Below are positions 1-31,837 of a stretch of 32,167 nucleotides of DNA, in pieces; positions within the stretch are counted from its first letter, which is position 1; the number at the start of each line of letters is the position of its first letter. Below the pieces are notes generated by a model, which was not told the DNA's origin, ran no database searches, and was given only the letters and a program-made list of their open reading frames with translations. The translations under genes and the position numbers were made by a program. This stretch comes from a phage, in assembly GCA_021683455.1 (NCBI GenBank), contig GCA_021683455.1_3051.2; one strand, 5' to 3'.

Positions 1-13
1 CCCTGTTCTTCCA

Positions 14-45
14 TGGTACTATACAACTATCAACTACTGATACAG
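14..45 (+). repeat. 32-nt early promoter -10/leader cassette, copy 1 (TGGTACTATACAACTATCAACTACTGATACAG)
   Basis: Near-identical copies at 14857-14888 (1 mismatch) and 16299-16322; partial at 11269-11282. Confidence 0.85.
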
Positions 46-65
46 AAAACAACTTGGAGAATGAA

Positions 66-329
66 ATGGATAATTACGGCGAACTGTTCAACTTCTTTAT
101 GAAATGTGTTTCAGAAGATTTTGGTCGTACAGTGAATGATATTAAAGTTATCGGTCCTGACCATCCGATGTTTGAAACTTATACAGTAATGGGTAATGAA
201 GACGGTCAGTGGTATACTGTAAAGGTTGTGATTAACATGTTCACTGCTGAAAGTTATGTTAAACTGTCTTCTAAAGTTTACCATGATAACGACGAAATCG
301 CAGAAGAATATTTCAATAATATGAAATAA
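66..329 (+). CDS. hypothetical protein (e.8-position ORF)
   Basis: First in-frame ATG at 66, 5 nt after GGAGA; track frame 54..329 starts at TTG; 87 aa; slot assigned by gene order only. Confidence 0.55.
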   Translation: MDNYGELFNFFMKCVSEDFGRTVNDIKVIGPDHPMFETYTVMGNEDGQWYTVKVVINMFTAESYVKLSSKVYHDNDEIAEEYFNNMK

Positions 330-359
330 GTTTACATAGGCTCATGATTGAGATATTAT
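330..359 (+). promoter_or_regulatory. early promoter (GTTTAC -35 at 330-335; TATTAT -10 at 354-359)
   Basis: T4 early promoter architecture, spacing 18. Confidence 0.5.
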
Positions 360-365
360 GAGCCT
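338..365 (+). other. RNA hairpin (AGGCTCAT / ATGAGCCT, 12-nt loop) between e.8 and e.7
   Basis: Perfect 8-bp inverted repeat read directly; overlaps putative promoter. Confidence 0.45.
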
Positions 366-385
366 ATAATTTGAGGAAAACTGTT

Positions 386-904
386 ATGTCTCTTTATACC
401 GAACTGAATGAAACTTCCGAAAAATCTTTTGATGGTATCTTATCAATAATGCAAAAGCAGGTATTAGAAGAGCTTAGTGAAGCCGCAAGCAATGGGTACA
501 AAGCTTGTCGAGTTCAAAGCCCACATCGCCGCATGTATGAACGCCCTCTTATTAATTGGCTAGAAAGCGAAGGTCTTACGGTTAAGATTTGCCCTGCTAA
601 ATTTGATGTCCCACGTATTCTTAATATTTACTGGGATAAACCGGTTGAGAAAAGTGACACTTGGGTTGTTAATGTAAAAACATGTGATAATGGATGCTCA
701 CTTGAGGTGTCTGCTGTAATTAAAGGCACTCATGGTGAAAAATCGTGGGGTTGGCCTGGTAAAGATAAAGAAATCGTGTTAAGTGTAAAAGCTACTAGTA
801 TTAGTACTCCTATAGCTAAAAGCATTATCACTGCCGCTGTTGAAGAAGCTGAACGAATTTGTAAAATTAAAAATAGTTTACATCTCTTAAGTAGCATGAT
901 ATAA
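386..904 (+). CDS. hypothetical protein (e.7-position ORF)
   Basis: ATG 386 preceded by GAGG at 373-376; track frame 371..904 begins at TTG; 172 aa. Confidence 0.55.
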   Translation: MSLYTELNETSEKSFDGILSIMQKQVLEELSEAASNGYKACRVQSPHRRMYERPLINWLESEGLTVKICPAKFDVPRILNIYWDKPVEKSDTWVVNVKTCDNGCSLEVSAVIKGTHGEKSWGWPGKDKEIVLSVKATSISTPIAKSIITAAVEEAERICKIKNSLHLLSSMI

Positions 905-947
905 TTTTTCTGCAAATTTTAATTTCTAATCAACCTAAGGAAATACT

Positions 948-1541
948 ATGAACACACTGAAGAAAATTGTTGAGTTTATTCGCACTAAACTTGGTTCTGC
1001 TATGGCTAAAAATCTATCTGTTGAAGAGCAGTATACTGCTGCGGCAGCAAAACTACTTGATAAAATTAAAGACCTAAAAACTGCTTCTATTAAATCTATT
1101 AATGAAGAAAAACGTATTCGTGAACTTATTGTCGAAAAGAATAAGCAGGCCGAATCAAAAGAGCGTGAAATTCGCAAGCTCCTTTCTGAAGGTCAAGACG
1201 TAACAATGCATGCTAAACTCGGTTTATTATATCGTCGAACAGCTGAGCAGTTGACTACTAAAGCTGATGGTTATGCTGAAATGCGAATTGAAATTGCCAA
1301 GAAAGTAGTTGAGTTAGATGATGCTCGTCAAGAACTTGCAGTTAAATTGGAATATATCCGTGAAACTCGTGCAGCGAATGCCCTTGGAATTAGTACTGCT
1401 GATGATGTAGTTGAAATCGCAGCACTGACTAAGGTTGATATTGAAGACACACTTGCTCGAGTTGAAACCTTTAATGGCAATATTTCTGGGGTTGAAACTA
1501 CCTCTGCCGATGTTCAGGAATATATTAATTCTCTGAAATAA
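948..1541 (+). CDS. all-helical coiled-coil protein (e.6-position ORF); PspA/ESCRT-III-like layout, unverified
   Basis: AAGGAAA then ATG 948; 197 aa rich in K/E/A/L heptad-like repeats with N-terminal amphipathic segment. Confidence 0.6.
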
Positions 1542-4353: not shown

Positions 4354-4384
4354 GTTTACTTTCTCCTAGAATTGTGATAGTATA
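4354..4384 (+). promoter_or_regulatory. early promoter-like element upstream of ip gene (GTTTAC 4354-4359; TAGTAT-like -10)
   Basis: Sequence pattern only. Confidence 0.4.
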
Positions 4385-4437
4385 TTCACAGTTGCTTGAA
4401 GAGACAAATTACTAATTAAAATATTTAAAGGAAACAC

Positions 4438-4707
4438 ATGAAAACATATCAAGAATTTATCACTGAAGCAGCTATTAATTCTCAAATTATTGCTGAATCT
4501 TTTACTGATCTTTTGAAATTTAAAAAAGGTCAAAAAATCACTGCTGTATTGGATGATGGTACAGAAGTTGAGATGGATGTACAGGGATATAATTATGCAG
4601 TAGATGGAAAACTGTATAATAAATCTCATGCTAAATTTGATTCATTTGACGACTTTGTTAATACAGTTGAAGATGAAAAAAACTCGTCGATCCATTGTAA
4701 CTGGTGA
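4438..4707 (+). CDS. internal head protein (IPII/IPIII-like) with capsid-targeting sequence
   Basis: N-terminus MKTYQEFITEA matches the conserved capsid-targeting sequence of T4 internal proteins; AAAGGAAA SD; T4 has ipIII/ipII at this position. Confidence 0.65.
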   Translation: MKTYQEFITEAAINSQIIAESFTDLLKFKKGQKITAVLDDGTEVEMDVQGYNYAVDGKLYNKSHAKFDSFDDFVNTVEDEKNSSIHCNW

Positions 4708-4912
4708 TGCTAAGGTTCTTATGGCACATGGTCATGAACGCATTCGCGCTAAACAGAATAAAATGGGTGAAGATAATTTTGCATTAGTTGGTTATCAATC
4801 TGGTAAACAAACCTATGGTTATCAGCGTACTGCTACCATGTATAATAAAAATGGTAAAATTGCCTTTGTAAATAGTAAAGGTTCTATTCAGTACGTTAAA
4901 TCGTTCAAATAA
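4673..4912 (+). CDS. basic 79-aa ORF overlapping the ip 3' end; separate gene or frameshifted continuation of the ip gene
   Basis: ATG 4673 in +1 frame relative to 4438 ORF, across an A7 run (4676-4682); no capsid-targeting sequence of its own; weak SD. Confidence 0.35.
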   Translation: MKKTRRSIVTGDAKVLMAHGHERIRAKQNKMGEDNFALVGYQSGKQTYGYQRTATMYNKNGKIAFVNSKGSIQYVKSFK

Positions 4913-7078: not shown

Positions 7079-7105
7079 TTTTCTATCAGTTAAGAGGAGA
7101 ATAAC

Positions 7106-7567
7106 ATGACTATCAATACAGAAGTTTTTATCCGTCGAAATAAGCTTCGTCGTCACTTTGAGTCGGAGTTTCGTCAAATTAACAATGAGATTCGTGAGGC
7201 ATCAAAAGCAGCAGGGGTCTCATCGTTTCATCTAAAATATTCTCAACATCTTCTTGATCGTGCAATTCAACGGGAGATTGATGAGACATATGTTTTTGAA
7301 TTATTCCATAAAATAAAAGACCATGTTTTAGAAGTTAATGAATTCCTGAGTATGCCTCCGCGTCCTGACATTGATGAGGATTTTATTGATGGAGTTGAAT
7401 ATCGTCCTGGACGTTTAGAAATTACAGATGGAAATCTTTGGCTTGGATTTACAGTTTGTAAACCTAATGAGAAGTTCAAAGACCCGTCACTTCAATGTAG
7501 GATGGCAATTATCAACAGTCGTCGTTTACCAGGAAAGGCTTCTAAAGCAGTAATTAAAACTCAATGA
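7106..7567 (+). CDS. regB: RegB sequence-specific endoribonuclease
   Basis: 153 aa matching T4 RegB size and N-terminus as I recall it (MTINTEVFIRRNKLRRHF...); AAGAGGAG SD; early promoter upstream. Confidence 0.8.
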   Translation: MTINTEVFIRRNKLRRHFESEFRQINNEIREASKAAGVSSFHLKYSQHLLDRAIQREIDETYVFELFHKIKDHVLEVNEFLSMPPRPDIDEDFIDGVEYRPGRLEITDGNLWLGFTVCKPNEKFKDPSLQCRMAIINSRRLPGKASKAVIKTQ

Positions 7568-9684: not shown

Positions 9685-10266
9685 ATGGCGAGTTTAATTT
9701 TTACTTATGCAGCAATGAATGCTGGAAAATCTGCTTCTCTTTTGACTGCTGCACATAATTATAAAGAACGTGGAATGGGTGTATTAGTTCTTAAGCCTGC
9801 TATTGATACTCGCGATTCTGTCTGTGAAGTTGTTTCTCGCATTGGAATTAAGCAGGAAGCGAATATTATTACAGATGATATGGATATTTTCGAGTTCTAT
9901 AAATGGGCTGAAGCACAAAAAGATATTCATTGCGTATTTGTAGATGAAGCTCAGTTTTTAAAAACTGAACAGGTGCACCAATTAAGCCGAATTGTTGATA
10001 CATATAATGTTCCTGTTATGGCTTATGGATTAAGGACTGATTTCGCTGGAAAATTGTTTGAAGGTTCTAAAGAACTTTTGGCGATTGCAGATAAACTTAT
10101 TGAACTAAAGGCAGTTTGTCATTGCGGCAAAAAAGCGATTATGACAGCTCGATTAATGGAAGATGGAACACCAGTTAAAGAAGGTAATCAAATCTGTATT
10201 GGTGATGAAATTTATGTTTCTTTGTGTAGAAAACACTGGAACGAATTAACTAAAAAGCTCGGTTAG
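9685..10266 (+). CDS. tk: thymidine kinase
   Basis: P-loop MNAGKSAS, Walker B VFVDEAQF, C-terminal Cys zinc-ribbon (VCHCGKK...CIGDEIYVSLC); AAGAAGGTGA SD; 193 aa. Confidence 0.92.
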   Translation: MASLIFTYAAMNAGKSASLLTAAHNYKERGMGVLVLKPAIDTRDSVCEVVSRIGIKQEANIITDDMDIFEFYKWAEAQKDIHCVFVDEAQFLKTEQVHQLSRIVDTYNVPVMAYGLRTDFAGKLFEGSKELLAIADKLIELKAVCHCGKKAIMTARLMEDGTPVKEGNQICIGDEIYVSLCRKHWNELTKKLG

Positions 10267-11214: not shown

Positions 11215-11237
11215 AGTCTCCTTCGGGAGACTTTTTT
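11215..11237 (+). terminator. intrinsic terminator (AGTCTCC-TTCG-GGAGACT + TTTTTT)
   Basis: 7-bp stem, UUCG loop, T-run. Confidence 0.8.
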
Positions 11238-11247
11238 CATTTTACCG

Positions 11248-11277
11248 GTTTACTTTTCGTTTGAGCCGTGGTACTAT
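11248..11277 (+). promoter_or_regulatory. early promoter (GTTTAC 11248-11253; TGGTACTAT -10 region)
   Basis: Directly follows terminator 11215-11237. Confidence 0.65.
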
Positions 11278-11305
11278 ACAACCATCGGATAAAGAGGAGA
11301 ACATC

Positions 11306-11494
11306 ATGAAAATTGAAGCACTTAATCAAGAAGGAAATATCTACGTCATCATTAATGGTGATTTTTTCGTCGACATGGATGAAGTTACTAGTGAAGAACT
11401 TGTAGAACTTCTTAAGAAACGTTATAATATGTGTGATGAAGTTGCAACTCACATGGCGTGTGCAATATTCTCTCTGTCATATGTGGTGGAATAA
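11306..11494 (+). CDS. small acidic protein
   Basis: AAGAGGAGA SD then ATG 11306; follows early promoter. Confidence 0.5.
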
Positions 11495-11697
11495 TGATTA
11501 GTATTGAACAAGCAGATAAAATTAAAGAATTGGTAGCTTCAATTCGTAAAGCAGATGAAGAGCTGATTGACTTTGCTTGGTATTCATCGGGTATTTCGAA
11601 TAAAGGCATTAAAGACTTTGAAACTAAAGTTGATAATGCTTTAGAAGCGTTAGATATGTTTCTTGATGAAATTATCGATCATAATACGAGAGTTTAA
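11494..11697 (+). CDS. small hypothetical protein
   Basis: ATG overlaps upstream TAA; 67 aa. Confidence 0.45.
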   Translation: MISIEQADKIKELVASIRKADEELIDFAWYSSGISNKGIKDFETKVDNALEALDMFLDEIIDHNTRV

Positions 11698-11699
11698 GT

Positions 11700-11894
11700 A
11701 TGCTAACACATGAACAGTTTGAAAAAATCATTAAATTAGCACGTGATATTGAAATAGATTCATATCAATTAGCAGTTGAGCATTGTGAAGGATATTCATA
11801 CGACGGTATAGAAACAGCTAAAAAGGATTTGGATAAATCTAAAGCTAAGTTAGTTCAATATCTTGAAATGATTAGGTGGAATAATGAAAACTGA
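11700..11894 (+). CDS. small hypothetical protein
   Basis: 64-aa ORF. Confidence 0.45.
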   Translation: MLTHEQFEKIIKLARDIEIDSYQLAVEHCEGYSYDGIETAKKDLDKSKAKLVQYLEMIRWNNEN

Positions 11895-12056
11895 AAAGCA
11901 GATGTTTTTAATGAAACTAATTGAAGAATATGCTAATGCAGTTTCTGACTATGAATGTTCTTCTCGGGAAAGAGGTACAGCTTTCGCCAAAGAAGAAATG
12001 AAAATCATGGTTGATGCTCATACAAAGCTTCAGAATTTTATTGAAAACGTCATTTA
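11885..12056 (+). CDS. small hypothetical protein (57 aa)
   Basis: ATG 11885 overlapping upstream ORF end; below track cutoff. Confidence 0.35.
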
Positions 12057-12059
12057 ATG

Positions 12060-12089
12060 GTTTACAAGTTGGCAAGGTTATGGTATAGT
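12060..12089 (+). promoter_or_regulatory. early promoter (GTTTAC 12060-12065; TGGTATAGT 12081-12089)
   Basis: 18-nt spacing, extended -10. Confidence 0.7.
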
Positions 12090-12224
12090 AATCTTGTCAA
12101 CTGTCAAGGAGAAGAGAATGAAAGTTTTGTTTGTTGTGTATGTGATGATTCAATATAATTACCCAATGTTTACTTATAATCTGGTGAACAACATTATTGA
12201 TATTATTCAAAGGAGTATGTAATT

Positions 12225-12782
12225 GTGAGTGAGTCGAAGAGAATCAATATGAAACGATTAGTATTAGAAGTTAGTCCGCTTTTTGGTGAATTGGCTATAG
12301 AAAAAGTAAATAACATGTATCGTTTGACGCAAGAAGACGATATGATGTATTTTACGCCTAGTGAAATCATTCATTTAACCCAAATTGAATATCCTTATAC
12401 TGATAAAATAGTAAGCATCAATGATGAGCACAAAATTCATTTTTATTCTTCATGCCCAGGATTTAATATTAAAAGTGAGTCAATGTGTTTATCAGTTATC
12501 CATTGGGATAGTTTTATAGATAAGATTAAATATTTTTATTATTCTAATGAAAGAAAACATAGTTTAAAATGGTTTAAAAATTGCAATGCTATTATTACTA
12601 ACGCTTGCAATCAGAACGATGAAACTCTTTTAAATGTATCAAAATGTTATGAAGAGGGAGATGTCTTAACTATTCGCCAAATTGACGATTTTCGATCACA
12701 TATTGTCACATTTACCAAAGACGAAGCTATTGCGCTAAAGACTTATCTTGATTCTGTCATTCCAACTATGATTTCAAAGTGA
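12225..12782 (+). CDS. hypothetical protein, first of a tandem paralog pair
   Basis: GTG start 9 nt after AAGGAG (alternative ATG 12249); C-terminus EAIALKTYLDSVIPTM resembles next ORF. Confidence 0.5.
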   Translation: MSESKRINMKRLVLEVSPLFGELAIEKVNNMYRLTQEDDMMYFTPSEIIHLTQIEYPYTDKIVSINDEHKIHFYSSCPGFNIKSESMCLSVIHWDSFIDKIKYFYYSNERKHSLKWFKNCNAIITNACNQNDETLLNVSKCYEEGDVLTIRQIDDFRSHIVTFTKDEAIALKTYLDSVIPTMISK

Positions 12783-12788
12783 GGAAAT

Positions 12789-13310
12789 ATGTTTATTTCA
12801 AGTGGAAGTGGTTTAATTCGCGTTAAATTTAAAAATGACATCTTCCTTAGTCAAGGAGATGATATTATTAAAATGAGTTATGACGAAATAAAGAAAATTT
12901 GTCATATTCTTGAAAGTCGTGGAAAAGGAAATGCTACTATCGATATAGGTGATTTATGGGTGACACTTTATGAAGTATCCGAAGGATTTAACATTGAAGA
13001 TGAAAATAACATTTTAGCTATTGATAAAAGAACTGATTTGCTTGATGTATTAAAAGTTTATGAACAGTCAAATGGTGGAAGAAAAGCTGCATTGATTTAT
13101 CAAAAACCACATTCATGTGGAACTGCTTCAATCATTTCAAATATTGAAGATGAAACTGATACTTATATGTGTGTTTTAAAAGCTGGTGGTGACCGTCATC
13201 CGGATTTTATTTCTATTCGTCAAAACAATGGAGAAATTTCATTATCAAAATCAGAAGCTGAAGCTATGATTAAGTATTTAACAACCGTTACGCCTTCAAT
13301 GAAAGGATAA
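12789..13310 (+). CDS. hypothetical protein, second of a tandem paralog pair
   Basis: GAGGAAA SD; C-terminus EAEAMIKYLTTVTPSM. Confidence 0.55.
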   Translation: MFISSGSGLIRVKFKNDIFLSQGDDIIKMSYDEIKKICHILESRGKGNATIDIGDLWVTLYEVSEGFNIEDENNILAIDKRTDLLDVLKVYEQSNGGRKAALIYQKPHSCGTASIISNIEDETDTYMCVLKAGGDRHPDFISIRQNNGEISLSKSEAEAMIKYLTTVTPSMKG

Positions 13311-13312
13311 TT

Positions 13313-13774
13313 ATGATTATTAATGAAAACTCTTGGCACTATAAATTATTCAAATTGTTTAACGATGAGTGGCAACGACCTAAGACACTATGCGCATATT
13401 TTTGGTCTATTGCCATTCCTACATTTTTCGTTTCTATTTTTGGATGTGCTATACTCGTAGGGCTAACAATTATCTGTGCAGAAAGTTTACAACGTTGGCT
13501 TATTTTCGGTAGTTTATGGACTCTTATTCCATCGGCATTTATACTTGCCATTTTGCTTGTTTTACTTATTATTGGTTCATTTGTTATTCCTGCACAACTG
13601 CATGAAAAATATAAAGATTATAAATGGAAAAAGGATTATGCTTTACATGTAGAAAATATTGATAGGGCGTATAAAGGTTTACCTCCTATTCAACCCAAGA
13701 AATCGATTATCGTTGAATTTTTAAAAGCTCGTAAAGCTAAAGTATGTCCTGTTATTGAATATAAGGCTGAATGA
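13313..13774 (+). CDS. integral membrane protein
   Basis: Two long hydrophobic segments then basic C-terminal tail. Confidence 0.55.
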   Translation: MIINENSWHYKLFKLFNDEWQRPKTLCAYFWSIAIPTFFVSIFGCAILVGLTIICAESLQRWLIFGSLWTLIPSAFILAILLVLLIIGSFVIPAQLHEKYKDYKWKKDYALHVENIDRAYKGLPPIQPKKSIIVEFLKARKAKVCPVIEYKAE

Positions 13775-14784
13775 TGAAAACAGTAATGAAAAGCTATTTT
13801 GGTAGTCATCTTTATGGAACTTCTACTCCAGAATCTGATGTAGATTTTAAAGAAATCTTTGTTCCTCCTGCTCGCGATATTCTTATCGGAAATGTTAAAG
13901 AGCACATGAGTAAAAACACTAACAACACATCATCTAAAAACACTAAAGATGATATTGACCATGAACTATACAGTCTTAAGTATTTCTTTAAATTAGCAGC
14001 AGATGGTGAAACTGTAGCATTGGATATGCTTCACACTCCACCTGAACTAGTGGTTAAATCTGATTTGCCTGATGTGTGGAAGTTTATTCAAGACAACCGT
14101 TCTCGTTTTTATACGACTAACATGAAATCCTATTTAGGATATGTTCGCAAGCAAGCTTCTAAATACGGTGTCAAGGGTTCTCGTTTGGCTGCATTACGCG
14201 ATGTATTGAAAGTAGTTAATCAAATCCCTGACCAGTGGGTCGACTATCAAGAAGGAATCCCTGATAGACTTCGTCGTACTAAGGTAGAAGATATTAAACA
14301 CAGACTCCCTGAAAACGAATTCTGTGAATGGGTGTTCCATAATCACGAGAAAACAGGCCCGCAAACGTTCTACACTGTGTTGGGTCGTAAATATCAGACA
14401 ACACTTTCTCTTATTGAGCTTAAGCAGTCACTGAACAAATTAGATGCTGAATATGGTGAACGTGCTCGTAAAGCCGAAGCTAATGAAGGTATTGATTGGA
14501 AAGCTCTGAGTCATGCTTGTCGTGGTGGACTTCAACTATTGGAAATTTACAAAACTGGTGACTTGATTTATCCACTCCAAGATGCTCCATTTATTCTCGA
14601 CGTGAAGTTGGGTAAGCATCCATTTAAAACGGTCCAAGAGTTTTTGGAAGATGTGGTCGATCAAGTAGAAGCAGCATCTATTGAAGCTTCTAAGAATGGT
14701 ATGCAGCAAAAAGTTGACATGAGTTTCTGGGATGACTTCCTTGAGAAGGTCTATCTTGAAAACCACCGAAGTTATTATAAATGA
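13771..14784 (+). CDS. Pol-beta-fold nucleotidyltransferase-like protein (nrdC.11-position ORF)
   Basis: N-terminal YFGSHLYGTSTPESDVDF matches the hG[GS]x9-13-DhD nucleotidyltransferase signature; 337 aa; followed by intrinsic terminator. Confidence 0.6.
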   Translation: MMKTVMKSYFGSHLYGTSTPESDVDFKEIFVPPARDILIGNVKEHMSKNTNNTSSKNTKDDIDHELYSLKYFFKLAADGETVALDMLHTPPELVVKSDLPDVWKFIQDNRSRFYTTNMKSYLGYVRKQASKYGVKGSRLAALRDVLKVVNQIPDQWVDYQEGIPDRLRRTKVEDIKHRLPENEFCEWVFHNHEKTGPQTFYTVLGRKYQTTLSLIELKQSLNKLDAEYGERARKAEANEGIDWKALSHACRGGLQLLEIYKTGDLIYPLQDAPFILDVKLGKHPFKTVQEFLEDVVDQVEAASIEASKNGMQQKVDMSFWDDFLEKVYLENHRSYYK

Positions 14785-14786
14785 TA

Positions 14787-14810
14787 GGGAGCCTTCGGGC
14801 TCCCTTTTTT
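14787..14810 (+). terminator. intrinsic terminator (GGGAGCC-TTCG-GGCTCCC + TTTTTT)
   Basis: 7-bp GC-rich stem, UUCG loop, T6. Confidence 0.85.
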
Positions 14811-14835
14811 ATTTCAAAAATTTTTTCACAAAACG

Positions 14836-14865
14836 GTTTACAAACATAAGGCTTTATGGTATTAT
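14836..14865 (+). promoter_or_regulatory. early promoter (GTTTAC 14836-14841; TGGTATTAT 14857-14865)
   Basis: Directly follows terminator 14787-14810. Confidence 0.75.
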
Positions 14866-14888
14866 ACAACTATCAACTACTGATACAG
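14857..14888 (+). repeat. 32-nt early promoter -10/leader cassette, copy 2
   Basis: 31/32 identical to 14-45 by eye. Confidence 0.85.
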
Positions 14889-14902
14889 ATTTGGAGAATA
14901 AA

Positions 14903-15871
14903 ATGAAAACTGTAACTATCAATAAGGGTATCTACTTCGGTAAAGAAATCTCTGGAACTTTTGAGCTCTTAGGCGAATGGTTCCCAGATAATGCTCCGGT
15001 AGATGCACAAGGAGATGGTAAAGTTTTTGTTGAAATTGACGGTAAACGTCGCGGTGTTTGGGTTTACAAATCAGACATTTCATATGATGGTGTAAAAGTT
15101 GAAGAAGTTAAAGAATCGTATGAAGATATGAAAACCCGCATTAATAAAAGATTTAATGTTATGGGAATGATGACGAATGGTATTATTAACGGAAACATTC
15201 GTTCATTAATTATCTCTGGTGCAGCAGGTATTGGTAAAACGTATTCTTTAGATAAAGCTTTAAATAAAGCAAATGATATTGGATACATTGAATATAAAAG
15301 CATTAACGGTAAAATCTCCGGTATCGGTCTTTATGAGCAGCTTTGGAATAATCGTGAAGAGAATTCTGTCCTTTTGATTGATGATGTGGATGTTTTCTCT
15401 GATATGGATATTCTTAATCTTCTAAAAGCCGCTCTGGACACTGGAGAGACCCGTAAAGTCTGCTGGAGCACTGCATCTTCTTACTTAGAAGAAAAAGGCA
15501 TTGAGCGTGAGTTTGAATTTAAAGGAACGATTGTTTTTATCACAAACGTTGACATTGACCGCGAATTAGACCGTGGTACTAAACTTGCTCCACATTTACA
15601 AGCATTAGTGTCCCGCTCAGTTTATTTGGATTTGGGTGTTCACACTAATGAAGAAATTATGGTCAGGGTTGAAGATGTTATTCTTTCAACTGACATGATG
15701 CAAAAGCGCGGTCTTTCTGATGAAGAAACTTATAAAGCATTATCATGGATGAAAGTCAATGTTAATCGTTTACGCAATGTTTCACTGCGTACTGCTCTTT
15801 ATCTTGCTGACTTTATTATGACCGACAAAAACGGTTGGGAAGAAATCGCTGAGGTTACTCTTCTGAAATAA
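14903..15871 (+). CDS. AAA+-like ATPase (nrdC.10-position ORF)
   Basis: Walker A SGAAGIGKT, Walker B VLLIDDVD, sensor-1-like FITN; first ATG after early promoter; track frame 14732 crosses terminator and promoter. Confidence 0.6.
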   Translation: MKTVTINKGIYFGKEISGTFELLGEWFPDNAPVDAQGDGKVFVEIDGKRRGVWVYKSDISYDGVKVEEVKESYEDMKTRINKRFNVMGMMTNGIINGNIRSLIISGAAGIGKTYSLDKALNKANDIGYIEYKSINGKISGIGLYEQLWNNREENSVLLIDDVDVFSDMDILNLLKAALDTGETRKVCWSTASSYLEEKGIEREFEFKGTIVFITNVDIDRELDRGTKLAPHLQALVSRSVYLDLGVHTNEEIMVRVEDVILSTDMMQKRGLSDEETYKALSWMKVNVNRLRNVSLRTALYLADFIMTDKNGWEEIAEVTLLK

Positions 15872-15972
15872 TTCATAAGAGGACTTCTATGACAAAAAGG
15901 CAGTTCAGAAATAGATTATATGGACTGCCATCAAAAAGATGACTAGAATTAAACTGGTGAATGGAGGTAGTG

Positions 15973-16275
15973 ATGTTATACTCAAAGGCTCGTGAAATTT
16001 ATGAAACTAAAATTAAAGACGCGGTTCATCAGTTCGCAACGACAATGCGTTGGACAAATGACTGGGAATACTCCAAGAATCATAAGAAGCCCTTGGTGAC
16101 AAGAAAGGCTCATATGTTAGTGTTAATAGACCGTGAGCAGATTAAAGCCCGAGAAGCCCTCCAGAATCATAAAAAGGCTGCCTTTGAATGGTTTATGGAT
16201 AACACTGCTCCTGAGACTAAGAAAGCGGTCAGCGCATGGTTCAGTGGAAAAAATTGTGAAAGAAGTTTCTTTTAG
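15973..16275 (+). CDS. hypothetical basic protein
   Basis: GGAGG SD then ATG 15973; 100 aa. Confidence 0.5.
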   Translation: MLYSKAREIYETKIKDAVHQFATTMRWTNDWEYSKNHKKPLVTRKAHMLVLIDREQIKAREALQNHKKAAFEWFMDNTAPETKKAVSAWFSGKNCERSFF

Positions 16276-16277
16276 TT

Positions 16278-16308
16278 GTTTACAAGACTGTTCCTCTGTG
16301 GTACTATA
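16278..16308 (+). promoter_or_regulatory. early promoter (GTTTAC 16278-16283; TGGTACTAT 16299-16308)
   Basis: Upstream of ATG 16336. Confidence 0.65.
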
Positions 16309-16322
16309 CAACTATCAACTAC
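16299..16322 (+). repeat. early promoter -10/leader cassette, copy 3 (24 nt)
   Basis: Identical to first 24 nt of copy 1, then diverges into GGAGG SD. Confidence 0.8.
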
Positions 16323-16335
16323 GGAGGAACAGAAA

Positions 16336-16863
16336 ATGAATGCTAAAGATATTTTCAACCTGGTAAATTACAACGATGGTAAATTTAAATCTGAAGCACA
16401 AAGCAAGTTCTTTAATGACATCTCAATCGGAGGTGAAATCACTGTTGATGGAGGACAAATTTACAAATCCCGTTGGAATTGGATCGTTATTATTGATGAA
16501 ATTGGTATTGTAGAAATTTACAAAAATACGAATAAAAATCGTACATTACACTGGTCTCGTGATACTAACGAACAGTACAAAAAGGATAAAGCATCTAAAT
16601 TATCTCGTGTAACTCAAGAAGATATTGAGTTCATCAAGAAAGATATTTTAATGTATGATAACTTAATTGCTGAAGAGCAAGCTGTTATTGATAAATTTGA
16701 TGAGATTAAAGCTTCTCGTGAAATTCCTGATTTTATGAAAGAATCAGTAAATGAACGATACACTCTCATTTCAGAGCGTATTGAAACTTACAAAAAGCAA
16801 AGAGCTGAACGCCAGAACACTCTTCGGAAATTTGAAGAACGGTTAAAGACGGTACTCGCATAA
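16336..16863 (+). CDS. hypothetical protein
   Basis: GGAGG SD then ATG 16336, after early promoter; 175 aa. Confidence 0.55.
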   Translation: MNAKDIFNLVNYNDGKFKSEAQSKFFNDISIGGEITVDGGQIYKSRWNWIVIIDEIGIVEIYKNTNKNRTLHWSRDTNEQYKKDKASKLSRVTQEDIEFIKKDILMYDNLIAEEQAVIDKFDEIKASREIPDFMKESVNERYTLISERIETYKKQRAERQNTLRKFEERLKTVLA

Positions 16864-16865
16864 CC

Positions 16866-16889
16866 GCTTTATACCAAGGATGGTATAAT
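16866..16889 (+). promoter_or_regulatory. middle-promoter-like element (MotA-box-like GCTTTA 16866-16871, 12 nt, TATAAT 16884-16889)
   Basis: Matches T4 middle promoter geometry; box lacks leading T. Confidence 0.45.
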
Positions 16890-16918
16890 GGTTCTAAGCC
16901 CTTTTAATTGAGATTATT

Positions 16919-17320
16919 ATGAAACGGTTGATAATTAAAAGATTGAATTTATTGATATGTTGTTTATGTGTAGTAGTTGCATATGGTTATTACGCAATTA
17001 ATGATTATATGCATTATAAAGATTATGATGTTACTGTAGTTAATACCATTACAGGAACACAAGGAAAGGGGTCTAGTTTATCGTTTATTGCCGTATATGA
17101 ACTCAAAGACGGTTATAGATTTAGCGAATATATTTCGCCAGAGATGTATTCTTCAATAGAAAAAGGTGATAATATTACTGTAAGTTTACGTCCTTTCGAC
17201 GTAAAACAGACATTGTTTGATAATATTATTTGGTTCTTTGGAATGGCATTAGTTCAATCTATATGTGGTACTTATATAGTCTGTTCAATCTTATTCCGCG
17301 TAATTGGTAAAATTGAGTGA
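16919..17320 (+). CDS. membrane protein
   Basis: Hydrophobic helices at N- and C-terminus. Confidence 0.5.
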   Translation: MKRLIIKRLNLLICCLCVVVAYGYYAINDYMHYKDYDVTVVNTITGTQGKGSSLSFIAVYELKDGYRFSEYISPEMYSSIEKGDNITVSLRPFDVKQTLFDNIIWFFGMALVQSICGTYIVCSILFRVIGKIE

Positions 17321-24017: not shown

Positions 24018-25831
24018 CAATTGAAAAAGAAATTGAAGGATTGATTCATAAAACTAATAAAGACCTTTTAAACGAGAATGCTAATAAAGATTCTCGTGTT
24101 TTTCCAACTCAACGGGACCTTATGGCTGGTATTGTGTCTAAACACATTGCCAAAAATATGGTCCCGTCTTTTATTATGAAAGCGCATGAAAGCGGAATTA
24201 TTCATTTCCACGATATTGATTATTCCCCTGCTCTTCCATTTACTAATTGTTGTTTAGTAGATTTAAAAGGAATGCTTGAGAACGGATTTAAGCTTGGTAA
24301 TGCACAGATTGAAACTCCTAAATCAATCGGTGTTGCTACTGCAATTATGGCACAAATTACTGCACAGGTTGCTTCCCATCAATACGGCGGAACGACTTTT
24401 GCTAATGTAGATAAAGTACTTTCTCCTTATGTTAAACGCACCTATGCAAAACATATTGAGGATGCAGAAAAATGGCAAATCGCTGATGCGTTGAATTATG
24501 CTCAATCTAAAACAGAAAAAGATGTATACGATGCATTCCAAGCTTATGAATATGAAGTAAATACTCTCTTTAGCTCAAACGGACAAACACCTTTTGTAAC
24601 AATTACATTTGGTACAGGAACTGACTGGACTGAACGAATGATTCAGAAAGCAATTCTGAAAAATCGTATTAAAGGTCTTGGTCGTGATGGGATAACTCCT
24701 ATTTTCCCTAAACTTGTTATGTTCGTTGAAGAAGGTGTTAATCTTTATAAAGACGACCCGAACTATGATATTAAGCAGCTTGCTTTAGAGTGCGCAAGCA
24801 AAAGAATGTATCCTGACATCATTTCGGCTAAGAACAATAAAGCTATCACCGGCTCATCTATTCCTGTTTCTCCAATGGGTTGTCGTAGTTTCTTGAGCGT
24901 ATGGAAAGATTCGACTGGCAATGAAATTCTTGATGGACGTAATAATCTCGGTGTTGTAACACTGAATCTTCCTCGTATCGCATTAGATTCTTATATTGGA
25001 ATACAGTTCAATGAACAGAAATTTGTTGAATTATTCAATGAACGAATGGATTTATGTTTTGAAGCTTTGATGTGTAGAATTAGTTCCTTAAAAGGAGTTA
25101 AAGCGACTGTTGCTCCTATTCTTTACCAAGAAGGTGCATTCGGGGTTCGTCTTAAACCTGATGACGATATAATTGAGTTATTTAAAAATGGCAGAAGTTC
25201 AGTGTCTCTAGGATACATTGGTATTCACGAATTGAATATTCTTGTCGGTCGTGATATTGGACAGGAAATTTTAACTAAAATGAATGCTCGTCTTAAGCAG
25301 TGGACTGAAAGAACCGGATTTGCTTTTAGTTTATATTCGACTCCTGCTGAAAACCTTTGTTATCGCTTCTGTAAACTCGATACCGAAAAATATGGAAGTG
25401 TAAAGGATGTTACCGATAAAGGCTGGTACACTAACAGTTTCCATGTTTCAGTAGAAGAAAATATTACTCCGTTTGAAAAGATTTCTCGCGAAGCGCCGTA
25501 TCATTTCATTGCGACAGGCGGTCACATTTCTTATGTTGAACTTCCAGATATGAAAAACAATTTAAAGGGTCTTGAGGCTGTCTGGGATTATGCTGCACAA
25601 CATTTAGATTATTTTGGTGTTAATATGCCGGTAGATAAATGTTTTACATGCGGAAGTACCCATGAAATGACTCCTACTGAAAACGGATTTGTTTGTTCTA
25701 TCTGTGGAGAAACTGATCCTAAAAAGATGAACACAATAAGAAGAACATGTGGTTATTTGGGAAATCCAAACGAACGTGGATTTAATCTCGGTAAAAATAA
25801 AGAAATCATGCATAGGGTTAAACACCAATGA
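24014..25831 (+). CDS. nrdD: anaerobic (class III) ribonucleoside-triphosphate reductase
   Basis: 605 aa; C-terminal glycyl-radical motif RRTCGYLG and Cys cluster CFTCGS...CSICG; ATGA overlap with gene 49. Confidence 0.97.
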   Translation: MTIEKEIEGLIHKTNKDLLNENANKDSRVFPTQRDLMAGIVSKHIAKNMVPSFIMKAHESGIIHFHDIDYSPALPFTNCCLVDLKGMLENGFKLGNAQIETPKSIGVATAIMAQITAQVASHQYGGTTFANVDKVLSPYVKRTYAKHIEDAEKWQIADALNYAQSKTEKDVYDAFQAYEYEVNTLFSSNGQTPFVTITFGTGTDWTERMIQKAILKNRIKGLGRDGITPIFPKLVMFVEEGVNLYKDDPNYDIKQLALECASKRMYPDIISAKNNKAITGSSIPVSPMGCRSFLSVWKDSTGNEILDGRNNLGVVTLNLPRIALDSYIGIQFNEQKFVELFNERMDLCFEALMCRISSLKGVKATVAPILYQEGAFGVRLKPDDDIIELFKNGRSSVSLGYIGIHELNILVGRDIGQEILTKMNARLKQWTERTGFAFSLYSTPAENLCYRFCKLDTEKYGSVKDVTDKGWYTNSFHVSVEENITPFEKISREAPYHFIATGGHISYVELPDMKNNLKGLEAVWDYAAQHLDYFGVNMPVDKCFTCGSTHEMTPTENGFVCSICGETDPKKMNTIRRTCGYLGNPNERGFNLGKNKEIMHRVKHQ

Positions 25832-26298
25832 ATTATGATAGATTTTATCCTTGCGATTTTGTGAATGGCCCTGGTTGCAGGGTCGTTCTTTTCGTTACAG
25901 GTTGTTTGCATAAATGTGAAGGGTGTTATAATAAATCAACATGGAATGCTAGAAATGGTATTCCATTCACTGGTGAAACACTAGAACAATTAATTGAATG
26001 TTTGAATAATGATTATATAGAAGGATTAACTATAACTGGGGGTGACCCTCTTTATCCTGATAACAGAGACGTGATTCACTCTGTTGTTCAAACTATTAAA
26101 AATCTTTATCCCAATAAAAGCATTTGGTTGTGGACAGGATATAAGTTTGAAGATATTAAACAACTAGAAATGCTTAAATATGTTGATGTTATTATTGATG
26201 GGAAGTATGAGAAAAATCTTCCGACTAAAAAGCTGTGGCGAGGATCAGATAATCAGCGACTTTGGTCAAATACCGATGGGGTGTGGACACATGATTAA
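25828..26298 (+). CDS. nrdG: anaerobic RNR activating enzyme (radical SAM)
   Basis: 156 aa; Cys motif CLHKCEGC; ATGA overlap with nrdD stop. Confidence 0.93.
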   Translation: MNYDRFYPCDFVNGPGCRVVLFVTGCLHKCEGCYNKSTWNARNGIPFTGETLEQLIECLNNDYIEGLTITGGDPLYPDNRDVIHSVVQTIKNLYPNKSIWLWTGYKFEDIKQLEMLKYVDVIIDGKYEKNLPTKKLWRGSDNQRLWSNTDGVWTHD

Positions 26299-26943: not shown

Positions 26944-27238
26944 GATTGAAGTCTATGGAATTCCAGATGAAGTAGGTCGTTGTCCTGGATGTCAATCAGT
27001 TACAAAACTTCTAAAGGAGCTCAATGCTCCTTTTACTTTCTATAAAGTTCTTACTAATAATGGTAAGATTGAGTACGATCGCCCATTGATTGTATCTCTT
27101 GCTAAACGCGCTGGATTCACATCTCTTAATATTCGGTATCCTGTCATTTTCATTAATGATTCTAGACAAAAGAACATTAAACACTTCAAAGAAACTCTCA
27201 TTTCACTTGGATATGATAGAGATATCATAGAAGACTAA
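26915..27238 (+). CDS. nrdH: glutaredoxin-like protein (NrdH-like); start codon uncertain
   Basis: Domain begins KIEVYGIPDEVGRCPGCQ (CPGC redox motif); no in-frame ATG after upstream stop, candidates GTG 26915 or upstream ATG 26816 within previous ORF. Confidence 0.5.
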   Translation: MEQNSNLKNKIEVYGIPDEVGRCPGCQSVTKLLKELNAPFTFYKVLTNNGKIEYDRPLIVSLAKRAGFTSLNIRYPVIFINDSRQKNIKHFKETLISLGYDRDIIED

Positions 27239-27242
27239 GACG

Positions 27243-27265
27243 GGCCCTCTGGGCCTTTCTTTCTT
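27243..27265 (+). terminator. terminator-like hairpin (GGCCC-TCT-GGGCC + T-rich tail)
   Basis: 5-bp GC stem with TTTCTTTCTT. Confidence 0.55.
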
Positions 27266-27336
27266 ACATTCTGTATATTACCATTCTAAGCTATCGTTCC
27301 CTTCTTATCATTCCCTAAAATAATTTTCACAAAGTT

Positions 27337-27366
27337 GTTTACAACAAGTTCAAACCGTGGTATTAT
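27337..27366 (+). promoter_or_regulatory. early promoter (GTTTAC 27337-27342; TGGTATTAT 27358-27366)
   Basis: Follows terminator-like hairpin 27243-27265. Confidence 0.7.
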
Positions 27367-27396
27367 TAACATATGAATTACCTTTGAGGAATTGAT

Positions 27397-27573
27397 ATGA
27401 TTGATAAAGAGATTAAAATTGACCAGTACTATCGTGTTAACGGACATATCGTTATTGTTACAGCAGTCGATGATTTAGATGTTCATTATACTTTGCTTAA
27501 ATGGAACAAACGTTTGATTTGTGATCGTGCTGTATTTAGTTCAGTTGCTAAGGAAATTAAACTCCATGGGTAA
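27397..27573 (+). CDS. small hypothetical protein (58 aa)
   Basis: GAGGA SD then ATG 27397, after early promoter. Confidence 0.4.
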   Translation: MIDKEIKIDQYYRVNGHIVIVTAVDDLDVHYTLLKWNKRLICDRAVFSSVAKEIKLHG

Positions 27574-30583: not shown

Positions 30584-30634
30584 TATTGCTTTATAAATTT
30601 TTGGTAAAATAAACCAAAACAAAGAGGATATTAA

Positions 30635-31837
30635 ATGAAAGTATGTATTTTTATGGCTCGAGGTCTTGAAGGTTGTGGTGTAACTAAATTTTCTCTTGAG
30701 CAACGTGATTGGTTTATTAAAAATGGTCATGAAGTAACTTTGGTTTATGCTAAAGATAAATCATTTACTCGTAATTGTGCGCATGATTATAAATCATTTT
30801 CAATTCCGGTTTTATTGGCAAAAGAATATGATAAAACACTTAAGCTGGTAAATGATTGTGATATTCTAATTATCAATTCAGTTCCTGCTACTTCGGTTGA
30901 AGAAGACACCATCAATAACTATAAAAAAATTATTGATAACATTAAACCTTCTGTTCGTGTTGTAGTTTATCAGCATGACCATTCTTCTCTTTCTTTGCGT
31001 CGAAATTTGGGATTAGAAGAAACTGTTCGTCGAGCTGATGTTATTTTTAGCCATTCTGATAATGGTGATTTTAATAAAGTTCTGATGAAAGAATGGTATC
31101 CAGAAACAGTTTCTCTGTTTGATGATATTGAAGAAGCACCGACAGTATATAATTTTCAGCCTCCTATGGATATTGCGAAGGTTCGGTCAACCTACTGGAA
31201 AGATGTTTCTGAAATTAACATGAATATCAACCGTTGGATTGGTCGTACGACTACATGGAAAGGTTTTTATCAGATGTTTGATTTTCACGAAAAACATCTT
31301 AAACCTGCAGGACTAAGTACTATTATGGAAGGTCTGGAACGTTCTCCAGCGTTCATTCCTATTAAAGAAAAAGGAATTCCATACGAGTATTATCGTCTTC
31401 ATCAAGTAGACCAAATTAAAATTGCTCCTAATTTGCCAACGCAAATTCTTGACCGTTATGTAAATAGCGAAATGCTTGAACGCATGAGTAAATCCGGATT
31501 TGGTTATCAACTGAGTAAGTTGGACAAAAAATATTTACAACGTTCTTTAGAATATACTCATCTCGAGCTTGGTGCATGTGGAACAATTCCGGTATTTTGG
31601 AAATCTACTGGCGAAAATTTAAAATTCCGTGTTGATAATACTCCGCTAATTTCGCATGATAGCGGTATCGTTTGGTTTGATGAAAATGACATGGAATCAA
31701 CATTTGAACGTATTAAAGAACTGTCATCTGACCGAGCTCTTTATGACCGTGAACGCGAAAAAGCTTATGAATTTTTGTATCAGCACCAAGATTCAAGCTT
31801 CTGCTTTAAAGAGCAGTTTGACATTATTACAAAATAA
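30635..31837 (+). CDS. agt: DNA alpha-glucosyltransferase (glucosylates hydroxymethylcytosine)
   Basis: 400 aa closely matching T4 alpha-glucosyltransferase as I recall it (…ICIFMARGLEGCGVTKFSLEQRDWFIKNGHEVTLVYAKDK…); AAGAGGA SD; terminator follows. Confidence 0.92.
   Translation: MKVCIFMARGLEGCGVTKFSLEQRDWFIKNGHEVTLVYAKDKSFTRNCAHDYKSFSIPVLLAKEYDKTLKLVNDCDILIINSVPATSVEEDTINNYKKIIDNIKPSVRVVVYQHDHSSLSLRRNLGLEETVRRADVIFSHSDNGDFNKVLMKEWYPETVSLFDDIEEAPTVYNFQPPMDIAKVRSTYWKDVSEINMNINRWIGRTTTWKGFYQMFDFHEKHLKPAGLSTIMEGLERSPAFIPIKEKGIPYEYYRLHQVDQIKIAPNLPTQILDRYVNSEMLERMSKSGFGYQLSKLDKKYLQRSLEYTHLELGACGTIPVFWKSTGENLKFRVDNTPLISHDSGIVWFDENDMESTFERIKELSSDRALYDREREKAYEFLYQHQDSSFCFKEQFDIITK

Follow-up and report, generated by a model that had tools for sequence, protein, structure and literature searches.

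Two questions are raised by a phage contig (NCBI GenBank assembly GCA_021683455.1, contig GCA_021683455.1_3051.2), analysed here as one stretch of 32,167 nucleotides (nt), hereafter the window. Why does a string of more than 30 nt recur almost unchanged at separate early promoters, and do the promoter units that carry it bound insertions and deletions (indels)? An original prediction, based on the letters alone, described intrinsic terminators directly followed by early promoters, in the manner of the promoter-early stem-loop (PeSL) cassettes of T4-type phages, together with a 32-nt promoter/leader repeat. By similarity to sequenced relatives (94-98% identity), the window is assigned to the T4-like (Tequatrovirus) early region e.8–tk–nrdC–nrdD–gene 55–a-gt. 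The sites in question very probably constitute a set of T4-type early-promoter cassettes, that is, the PeSL elements of Tequatrovirus.

Organization of the early-promoter cassettes

Hairpins followed by early promoters were found at all three sites at which they had been proposed (rI.-1/mobD.5, nrdC.11/nrdC.10 and nrdH/55.6), with coordinates correct to within 1 nt. Each of the three hairpin-linked promoters is composed of GTTTAC, a 14-nt spacer, TGG and TAYTAT. The PeSL promoter pattern TTTACW-N17-TAYWAT is present at 11249/11272, 14837/14860, 16279/16302 and 27338/27361, in each case also with TGn. An AT-rich stretch of the AAAATTTTTTCACAAAAC type precedes the -35, and GGAG/GAGG Shine-Dalgarno (SD) sequences lie 5-9 nt ahead of the ATG codons at 66, 11306, 14903, 16336 and 27397. 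The three hairpins, with the folding energies of Table 1, reach z of -3.0 to -4.1. Leaders, at 0 to -3.3 kcal/mol, do not fold better than shuffled sequences and can be considered unstructured. No convincing hairpin was detected upstream of the nrdC.8 promoter (P-nrdC.8, 16278), which is therefore a bare early promoter. The cassettes sit among the clusters of small open reading frames (ORFs) e.x, mobD.x, nrdC.x and 55.x, a setting known as hyperplastic.

Promoters of the window are positional orthologues of T4 P-e.8, P-mobD.5, P-nrdC.10, P-nrdC.8, P-nrdC.4, P-regB and P-55.6, with 95-100% identity. Early promoters and terminators are annotated at orthologous sites in SA21RB, in T4 (U76612) and in other records; at the mobD.5 site, U76612 carries a terminator, a -35 (minus_35) and a -10 (minus_10).

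The repeat had been placed at 14-45 and 14857-14888, and its existence is supported by the comparison of segments 15-46 and 14858-14889, which differ at a single one of 32 nt; no match appeared in 100 shuffles that preserve dinucleotides. By eye the repeat comprises 33 nt (14-46 and 14857-14889), and the sole difference is C/T in the -10 (TACTAT and TATTAT). The further 24-nt copy reported at 16299-16322 is also present and equals the first 24 nt of the repeat, and the first 14 nt occur at 11269-11282. In a repeat search of the window, this string, with 4 copies, represents the largest direct-repeat family. With regard to the promoter unit, the 33-mer extends from -15 to +18. Past the 33-mer and a short indel, both copies continue with TTGGAGAAT(G/A)AAATG. 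Completed at the window start by its T4 orthologue, the e.8 cassette can be aligned with that of nrdC.10 along ~94-100 nt (80% identity), beginning at AAAATTTTTTCACAAAAC, covering GTTTAC, -10 and leader, and ending with SD and ATG.

The 3' ends of the cassettes were compared with GG*AGRAYARAA, the strong cleavage site of RegB/S1 described by Durand et al. (2006) and reviewed in PMC3014915. Segment 14893-14903 matches GGAGRAYARAA in 11 of 11 positions, the only perfect match in the window, and it lies unpaired in an intergenic translation-initiation region, behind an unstructured leader. Five sites of the window are within 1 mismatch of this consensus, and four of them are SDs right behind early promoters; apart from the perfect one, these are the SDs of e.8 (56-66), regB (7096-7106) and mobD.2 (12108-12118), with 10 of 11 matches. 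The fifth, at 16450, is inside nrdC.8. As in the RegB/S1 sites of T4 early mRNAs, the cassettes hold GGAG in an A-rich context at their 3' ends; this predicted cleavage site forms one part of the cassette and is distinct from the 33-nt repeat.

A cassette of ~100-120 nt begins at its 5' end with a hairpin rich in GC, in many cases with a UUCG loop, and a T-run, which may end or attenuate the upstream early transcript. There follow an A/T-rich UP-like stretch (…AAAATTTTTTCACAAAAC), a -35 GTTTAC(A), a 14-nt spacer, an extended -10 (TGn plus TAYWAT), an A/C-rich discriminator (ACAACT) and a transcription start presumably near ATCAAC, ~7 nt past the -10. An unstructured leader of 20-40 nt and a GGAG SD in an A-rich context (RegB/S1 consensus) then lead to the ATG. 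In the mechanism that we propose, host sigma-70 RNA polymerase would fire the cassette promoters as soon as infection begins, rapid translation would be permitted by the short open leader, and RegB would later cut GGAG. With these parts, the cassette can be read as a full unit of immediate-early expression, which RegB would later shut off. Because near-identical cassettes are dispersed over the genome, very active homologous recombination would be expected to cross over between them. Such crossovers would keep cassettes mosaic yet similar, and could insert, delete or swap small ORF modules between them.

Promoter consensus and a leader subfamily

T4 was taken as the genome for genome-wide promoter counts, and 11 window and 23 T4 promoters were aligned, anchored on the -10. 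Consensus lists of T4 early promoters are reportedly found in Liebig & Rueger 1989, Wilkens & Rueger 1996 and Miller et al. 2003. The T4 genome contains 23 strict GTTTAC-N14-16-TGnTAYWAT sites, every one on the early strand, and motifs GGTAYTATACAAC, ACAACTATCAACTAC and TTTCACAAAACnGTTTAC occur in it 8, 5 and 6 times, respectively. The majority consensus of the 23 promoters reads …TTTCAcAAAattGTTTACAT…TGTGGTACTATA.AACTATCAACTActGAggaga… Each of bases 1-24 of the 33-mer is found in 8-23 of the 23 T4 promoters, and at all positions except one in at least 12 of them; the last 9 nt (TGATACAGA) are found in only 5-15.

When scored against the 33-mer, promoters fall into three groups: a subfamily with 32-33 of 33 positions, nrdC.8 with 28, and the remainder with 14-24. 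In T4, the leader type of the subfamily (33/33, 32/33 or, at nrdC.10, with a 3-nt gap) is located upstream of e.8, imm.1, motA, ndd.6 and nrdC.10. The T4 nrdC.10 copy is distinguished from the 33-mer by a 3-nt deletion (TAC) and A>G; compared with T4, P-nrdC.10 of the window has TATTAT instead of TACTAT and a leader longer by 3 nt. The full 33-mer is present in 2 of the 11 window promoters, and in T4 it is exact in 2 of 23, with 2 more at 32/33. The first 24 nt are a genus-wide consensus, and the last 9 nt mark off a subfamily of leaders, with five such promoters in each genome.

The repeat had been considered longer than promoter consensus requires. This does not hold for its first 24 nt, which follow the T4 majority consensus, and it does hold for the last 9 nt, which mark the subfamily. 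The reverse possibility, that the string is simply a long consensus standing at every early promoter, is likewise half true, because the 24-nt core is indeed a long consensus of the family but the full 33-mer, missing from most promoters, is a subfamily mark. The T4 early promoters, with whose consensus the 24-nt core of the window is identical, were described as "uber" UP/-35/TGn/-10 promoters with additional consensus regions, a family that fires at once on infection with unmodified host sigma-70 RNA polymerase (PMC2988021).

Mosaic promoters and competing explanations

Pairwise comparisons of T4 promoters gave a median identity of 29% in the spacer (between -35 and TGn) and 40% in the leader. 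Particular pairs combine a common spacer with dissimilar leaders: P-nrdC.10 and P-frd.3 (spacer 100%, leader 30%), P-imm.1 and P-ndd.4 (93% and 50%), and P-nrdC.4 and P-rIIA.1 (93% and 20%). The reverse is seen in P-imm.1 and P-ndd.6 (spacer 21%, leader 97%), whose genes also have the first four codons in common (ATGAAAATCGCT). Such mosaics are the outcome that crossovers within cassettes would produce.

Instead of recombination, function could keep the long identity if the +1..+18 leader (AUCAACUACUGAUACAGA) were a functional RNA element, involved in RegB/S1 targeting, stability or translation. Consistent with this, motA, imm.1, ndd.6, e.8 and nrdC.10 are all served by the same leader and GGAG SD, the leader is unstructured, and the SD downstream of it fits the strong-site consensus of RegB. 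However, change is tolerated, as TAC is missing at T4 nrdC.10 and A/G varies at +16 among paralogues, and in relatives a leader of another type (ATCAAAACAAA…) has taken the place of the whole leader ahead of nrdC.10. In addition, the leader has no Rfam match, a scan of the whole window with Rfam having found no structured RNA, and the reported RegB determinants lie in GGAG and on its 3' side rather than its 5' side (PMC3014915). We regard this explanation as unlikely.

Less likely still is pure convergence, in which each promoter would be selected separately toward one long polymerase optimum, without shared descent or recombination of cassettes. The -15 to +9 consensus in most of the 23 T4 early promoters, and the additional consensus regions described for this family (PMC2988021), would be expected under such selection. 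It does not explain why spacers, unconserved in the family as a whole, reach 93-100% in certain pairs with unrelated leaders, and the other way round. Moreover, the 9-nt extension and the first codons of imm.1 and ndd.6 (ATGAAAATCGCT) are shared past any plausible polymerase contact, and indel junctions fall inside cassettes (see below).

Age and distribution of the repeated string

The exact 33-mer was found in 481 phage records, including T4, T2, PST and RB51; related places number 7-9 in each genome. Allele counts refer to the GenBank phage collection; a spacer-plus-core scan of IMG/VR disclosed 3 contigs, too few. The nrdC.10 region of the window gives an ungapped alignment of 96% with 65 records, PST, RB3, RB27, HY01 and JY01 among them. 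A further 276 records align at 90-95%, and the T4 version, shorter by 3 nt, falls in that band. T4 possesses both repeat copies at orthologous positions. As judged from this distribution, the repeated string is old and common to T4-like phages.

The proposal of recently duplicated regulatory cassettes is not compatible with the orthologous copies in T4 and the exact 33-mer in 481 records. A duplication within the lineage of this phage would fit the mere 1 difference in 33 positions, and T4 nrdC.10, with its 3-nt deletion and A>G, has diverged further, so that the window copy could have been refreshed by gene conversion from a paralogue. Nevertheless, the cassette stands at both loci in T4, T2, PST and in hundreds of further records, the nrdC.10 region is ungapped at 96% in 65 records, the two copies have different spacers and upstream flanks, and the nrdC.10 spacer matches that of T4 P-frd.3 and not that of P-e.8. 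Recent duplication was rejected as extremely improbable on account of the orthologous copies.

Indels at the cassettes

Whether cassettes bound indels was answered differently at the three hairpin-linked sites: they do at nrdC.11/nrdC.10, and they do not at rI.-1/mobD.5 and nrdH/55.6. The nrdC.11/nrdC.10 spacer was surveyed in 60 of the 503 matching records, taken at even spacing. It is empty (~400 bp, as in T4, PST and the window) in ~35 of them, and in ~24 (~40%) the arrangement is variant. Inserts of ~258 bp (3 records), ~478 bp (9) and ~620 bp (4) were observed, in addition to deletion-plus-insert forms (2), deletions (2) and loss of homology inside the cassette (4); one record is a fragment.

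At least four cargos occupy this site, namely a 67-aa ORF, a two-ORF module with DUF4031, a 161-aa ORF in T2, and deletion derivatives. In SA21RB, the 67-aa ORF is inserted together with a hairpin. JB75 and ZN18 contain the two-ORF module, which includes a DUF4031 protein, and a second promoter, of the P-frd.1 type, then stands before nrdC.10 and is predicted to drive it. The T2 ORF, absent from the window and from T4, has its own promoter and is flanked by two units of hairpin, UP and promoter. Left junctions are located directly after TGGTACTATACAACTATCA (TACTATACAACTATCA), inside the 33-mer, and right junctions at GGAGAATAAAATG, the ribosome-binding site; in T2 the junctions are between two hairpin+UP units.

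The ORF67 module, with its own GTTTAC promoter and a downstream hairpin, was also detected in the Mosigvirus SA79RD with ~95% DNA identity, between unrelated RB69ORF134c-like and ORF133c-like genes. In the extracted loci, it corresponds to positions 16885-17150 in Tequatrovirus, upstream of nrdC.10, and 1441-1771 in SA79RD. This module looks as if it had been exchanged recently, and some modules appear to cross genera, because the copy in Mosigvirus retains such identity at an unrelated locus. The neighbouring 318-aa protein in SA79RD was tried as an nrdC.10 homologue and rejected as unrelated.

A replaced module was found in the window itself. With respect to T4, the ORF at the e.7 position has been exchanged, with homology breaking at 381, between the SD and ATG of e.7, and resuming at 931, in the e.6 leader; the two breakpoints fall in consecutive cassettes, in each case 3' of the -10 and 5' of the ATG. 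Since both breaks are in leaders, the replaced module (382-930) lies between two cassette leaders.

The association of cassettes with indels is real but site-specific. A stronger interpretation is that the nrdC.11/nrdC.10 cassette is a genus-wide preferred docking site for repeated capture of promoter-carrying ORF modules. Crossovers seem to be concentrated between -10 and +5 of the 33-mer, and in this interpretation the long invariant core would act as a quasi-site-specific exchange point rather than as incidental homology. We put it forward tentatively, as possible and not as probable.

The PeSL reading is carried by observed features: the anatomy of the cassettes, their orthology with those of T4, their age and spread, their mosaicism, and the indel junctions inside one of them. 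Several points nevertheless weigh against it. Promoters, terminators, start sites and RegB cutting are predicted from sequence and orthology, and the recombination pathway is presumed. Selection for promoter strength alone could account for part of the -15 to +9 conservation. The third hairpin (27242-27256) is poor in its U-tract and 80 nt distant from its promoter. At the rI.-1/mobD.5 cassette, 500 of 502 records are collinear, and the nrdH/55.6 cassette has no indel when compared with T4. Finally, most differences between the window and T4 are homing-endonuclease genes or the intron (mobB, mobC, mobD, I-TevII), or ORF swaps without flanking promoters.

Some additional observations concern individual relatives. 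In Shinka, a rare exception at the mobD.5 cassette, homology stops immediately after the -10 (window 11279). The 161-aa ORF of T2 (313-798 of the extracted locus) is labelled "RNA polymerase ADP-ribosylase" in its record, a putative assignment. A deletion in ZN18 reaches from the 3' arm of the terminator hairpin of nrdC.11 to the position immediately ahead of TGn (190-215 of the extracted locus; …GGGC joined to TTATGGTACTAT…). It takes out the T-run, UP and -35, and leaves half a cassette, like those described for PST.

Relation to known systems

Interpretation as PeSLs proved correct, and the arrangement of a terminator followed by a promoter has already been published for T4 and PST (PMC4122927). 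In the T4/PST type, a stem-loop is placed just upstream of TTTACW-N17-TAYWAT, with an AT-rich upstream region and with SD and ATG at the 3' end (PMC4122927). PeSLs were linked to the hyperplastic-region setting and to indels in T4 and PST (Comeau et al. 2014, PMC4122927), and experiments on mini-circles of RB49/phi1 placed crossovers in the interval from the -10 to SD/ATG (Arbiol et al. 2010, PMC2839356). Window cassettes share with PeSLs the composite of stem-loop, sigma-70-type early promoter and SD/ATG, the intergenic location in hyperplastic early regions, the T4/PST consensus with a stem-loop just upstream, and, at nrdC.10 and e.7, the insertions, deletions and replacements of ORFs. The PST nrdC.10 region is that of the window at 96%, without gaps. 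Nothing essential differs; two of the three hairpin-linked cassettes are structurally stable over ~500 genomes, and the link to plasticity therefore depends on the site. Activity of the promoter and terminator, and formation of mini-circles through recombination of flanking elements, are known from RB49/phi1 only, not from the Tequatrovirus group.

A functional analogy, and only that, can be drawn with integron gene cassettes and attC sites, in which small promoter-proximal ORF modules are similarly exchanged at short conserved boundaries. In contrast to integrons, phage cassettes are without a dedicated integrase or attC structure, their exchange being thought to proceed via general homologous recombination on promoter homology, and each phage module brings its own promoter.

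The finding is an ordinary and already known one: these are textbook T4 early promoters, in cassettes published in 2010 and 2014, PST included. It serves as a calibration, in that a repeat of 24-33 nt, seemingly "too long" for T4-type promoters, is composed of the family consensus and one leader subfamily, with no sign of recent duplication. It also illustrates the published model on the scale of a population of ~500 genomes, with one cassette as an insertion hot spot and two neighbouring cassettes that are not.

Gene content of the window

A megablast search with segment 10000-18000 matched 833 phage records, with query coverage of 80% or more in 454 of them. Nearly all matches are Tequatrovirus (T4-like) phages of Escherichia, Shigella and Yersinia, with 96-97% identity. 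NBEco003 is 100% identical to the window across 27100-27500 and 94-98% in other parts. The + strand carries all long ORFs. According to annotated SA21RB and T4 (NC_000866), the gene order is e.8, e.6, nudE, e, internal proteins, regB, vs, tk, rI, rI.-1, mobD.5-mobD.1, nrdC.11, nrdC.10, nrdC.9, nrdC.8 … nrdC, pin, 49, nrdD, nrdG, nrdH, 55.x, 55, a-gt. Positions of the features are listed in Table 1.

Table 1. Positions of repeat copies, cassettes, promoters, hairpins and selected genes in the window
Feature	Position	Strand	Basis and details
33-nt repeat, copy 1	14-46	+	-15 to +18 of P-e.8; 33/33 against T4 P-e.8 and P-motA
33-nt repeat, copy 2	14857-14889	+	32/33; insertion junctions of relatives after ...CTATCA, ~14875-14876
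e.8 cassette, 3' two-thirds (cut by window start)	1-68	+	SA21RB promoter annotation, T4 orthologue with full UP and -35; spacer 1-13, TGn 14-16, -10 TACTAT 17-22, discriminator ACAACT 23-28, predicted +1 29, leader 29-65, SD GGAG 56-59, ATG 66-68
Early promoter of the e.7-position ORF	330-388	+	GTTTAC 330-335, -10 TATTAT 354-359
e.6 early promoter	876-950	+	GTTTAC 876, TGATATAAT 897-905
rI.-1 downstream hairpin, intrinsic-terminator-like	11215-11238	+	7 bp, UUCG loop (cUUCGg), T6 run; annotated terminator in U76612 and SA21RB; 11215-11232 folds at -10.8 kcal/mol, 15 nt before -35
mobD.5 early promoter and leader	11248-11308	+	22/33 against 33-mer; GTTTAC 11248-11253, TGG 11269-11271, -10 TACTAT 11272-11277 (TGGTACTAT, 11269-11277), SD GAGGAG, ATG 11306
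mobD.2 early promoter	12060-12121	+	GTTTAC 12060, TGGTATAGT; SD GGAGAAGAGAA at 12108
nrdC.11 downstream hairpin, intrinsic-terminator-like	14786-14811	+	8 bp, UUCG loop (cUUCGg), T6 run; 14786-14805 folds at -17.7 kcal/mol, 30 nt before -35
nrdC.10 early-promoter cassette	14812-14905	+	Alignment to T4 and SA21RB annotation; UP-like AT-rich stretch with TTTCACAAAACG 14812-14835, GTTTAC 14836-14841, TGG 14857-14859, -10 TATTAT 14860-14865 (TGGTATTAT, 14857-14865), predicted +1 14872, GGAGAATAAAA 14893-14903, ATG 14903-14905
nrdC.8 early promoter and leader	16278-16338	+	28/33 against 33-mer, core shared, extension not; GTTTAC 16278-16283, TGG 16299-16301, -10 TACTAT 16302-16307, predicted +1 16314, SD GGAGG 16323-16327, ATG 16336
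nrdH downstream GC-rich hairpin	27242-27256	+	6 bp, -13.8 kcal/mol, weak U-tract
55.6 early promoter	27337-27399	+	TTTCACAAAGTT upstream, GTTTAC 27337-27342, TGGTATTAT 27358-27366, ATG 27397
tk	9685-10266	+	Annotated relatives
nrdC.11	13771-14784	+	Annotated relatives
nrdC.10	14903-15871	+	Annotated relatives
nrdC.8	16336-16863	+	Annotated relatives

At the e.7-position promoter, a 9-bp hairpin (337-345/358-366) overlaps its own -10, a layout resembling PeSLs of the RB49 type and not those of T4/PST; SA21RB has an overlapping promoter and terminator annotated at the orthologous site. Compared with T4, the window is without the nrdD intron with I-TevII, and without mobC, mobD and mobB (24549-24552, 25828-25848, 12807-13770, 30619-30644). 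Two unrelated ORFs, 12789-13310 and 13313-13774, are found at the mobD position. The internal-protein locus (4354-4469, 4470-4911) is unlike those of T4 and SA21RB. Homology stops there ~30 nt into the ORF starting at 4438, which fits the N-terminal targeting sequence shared by internal-protein genes as the exchange point.

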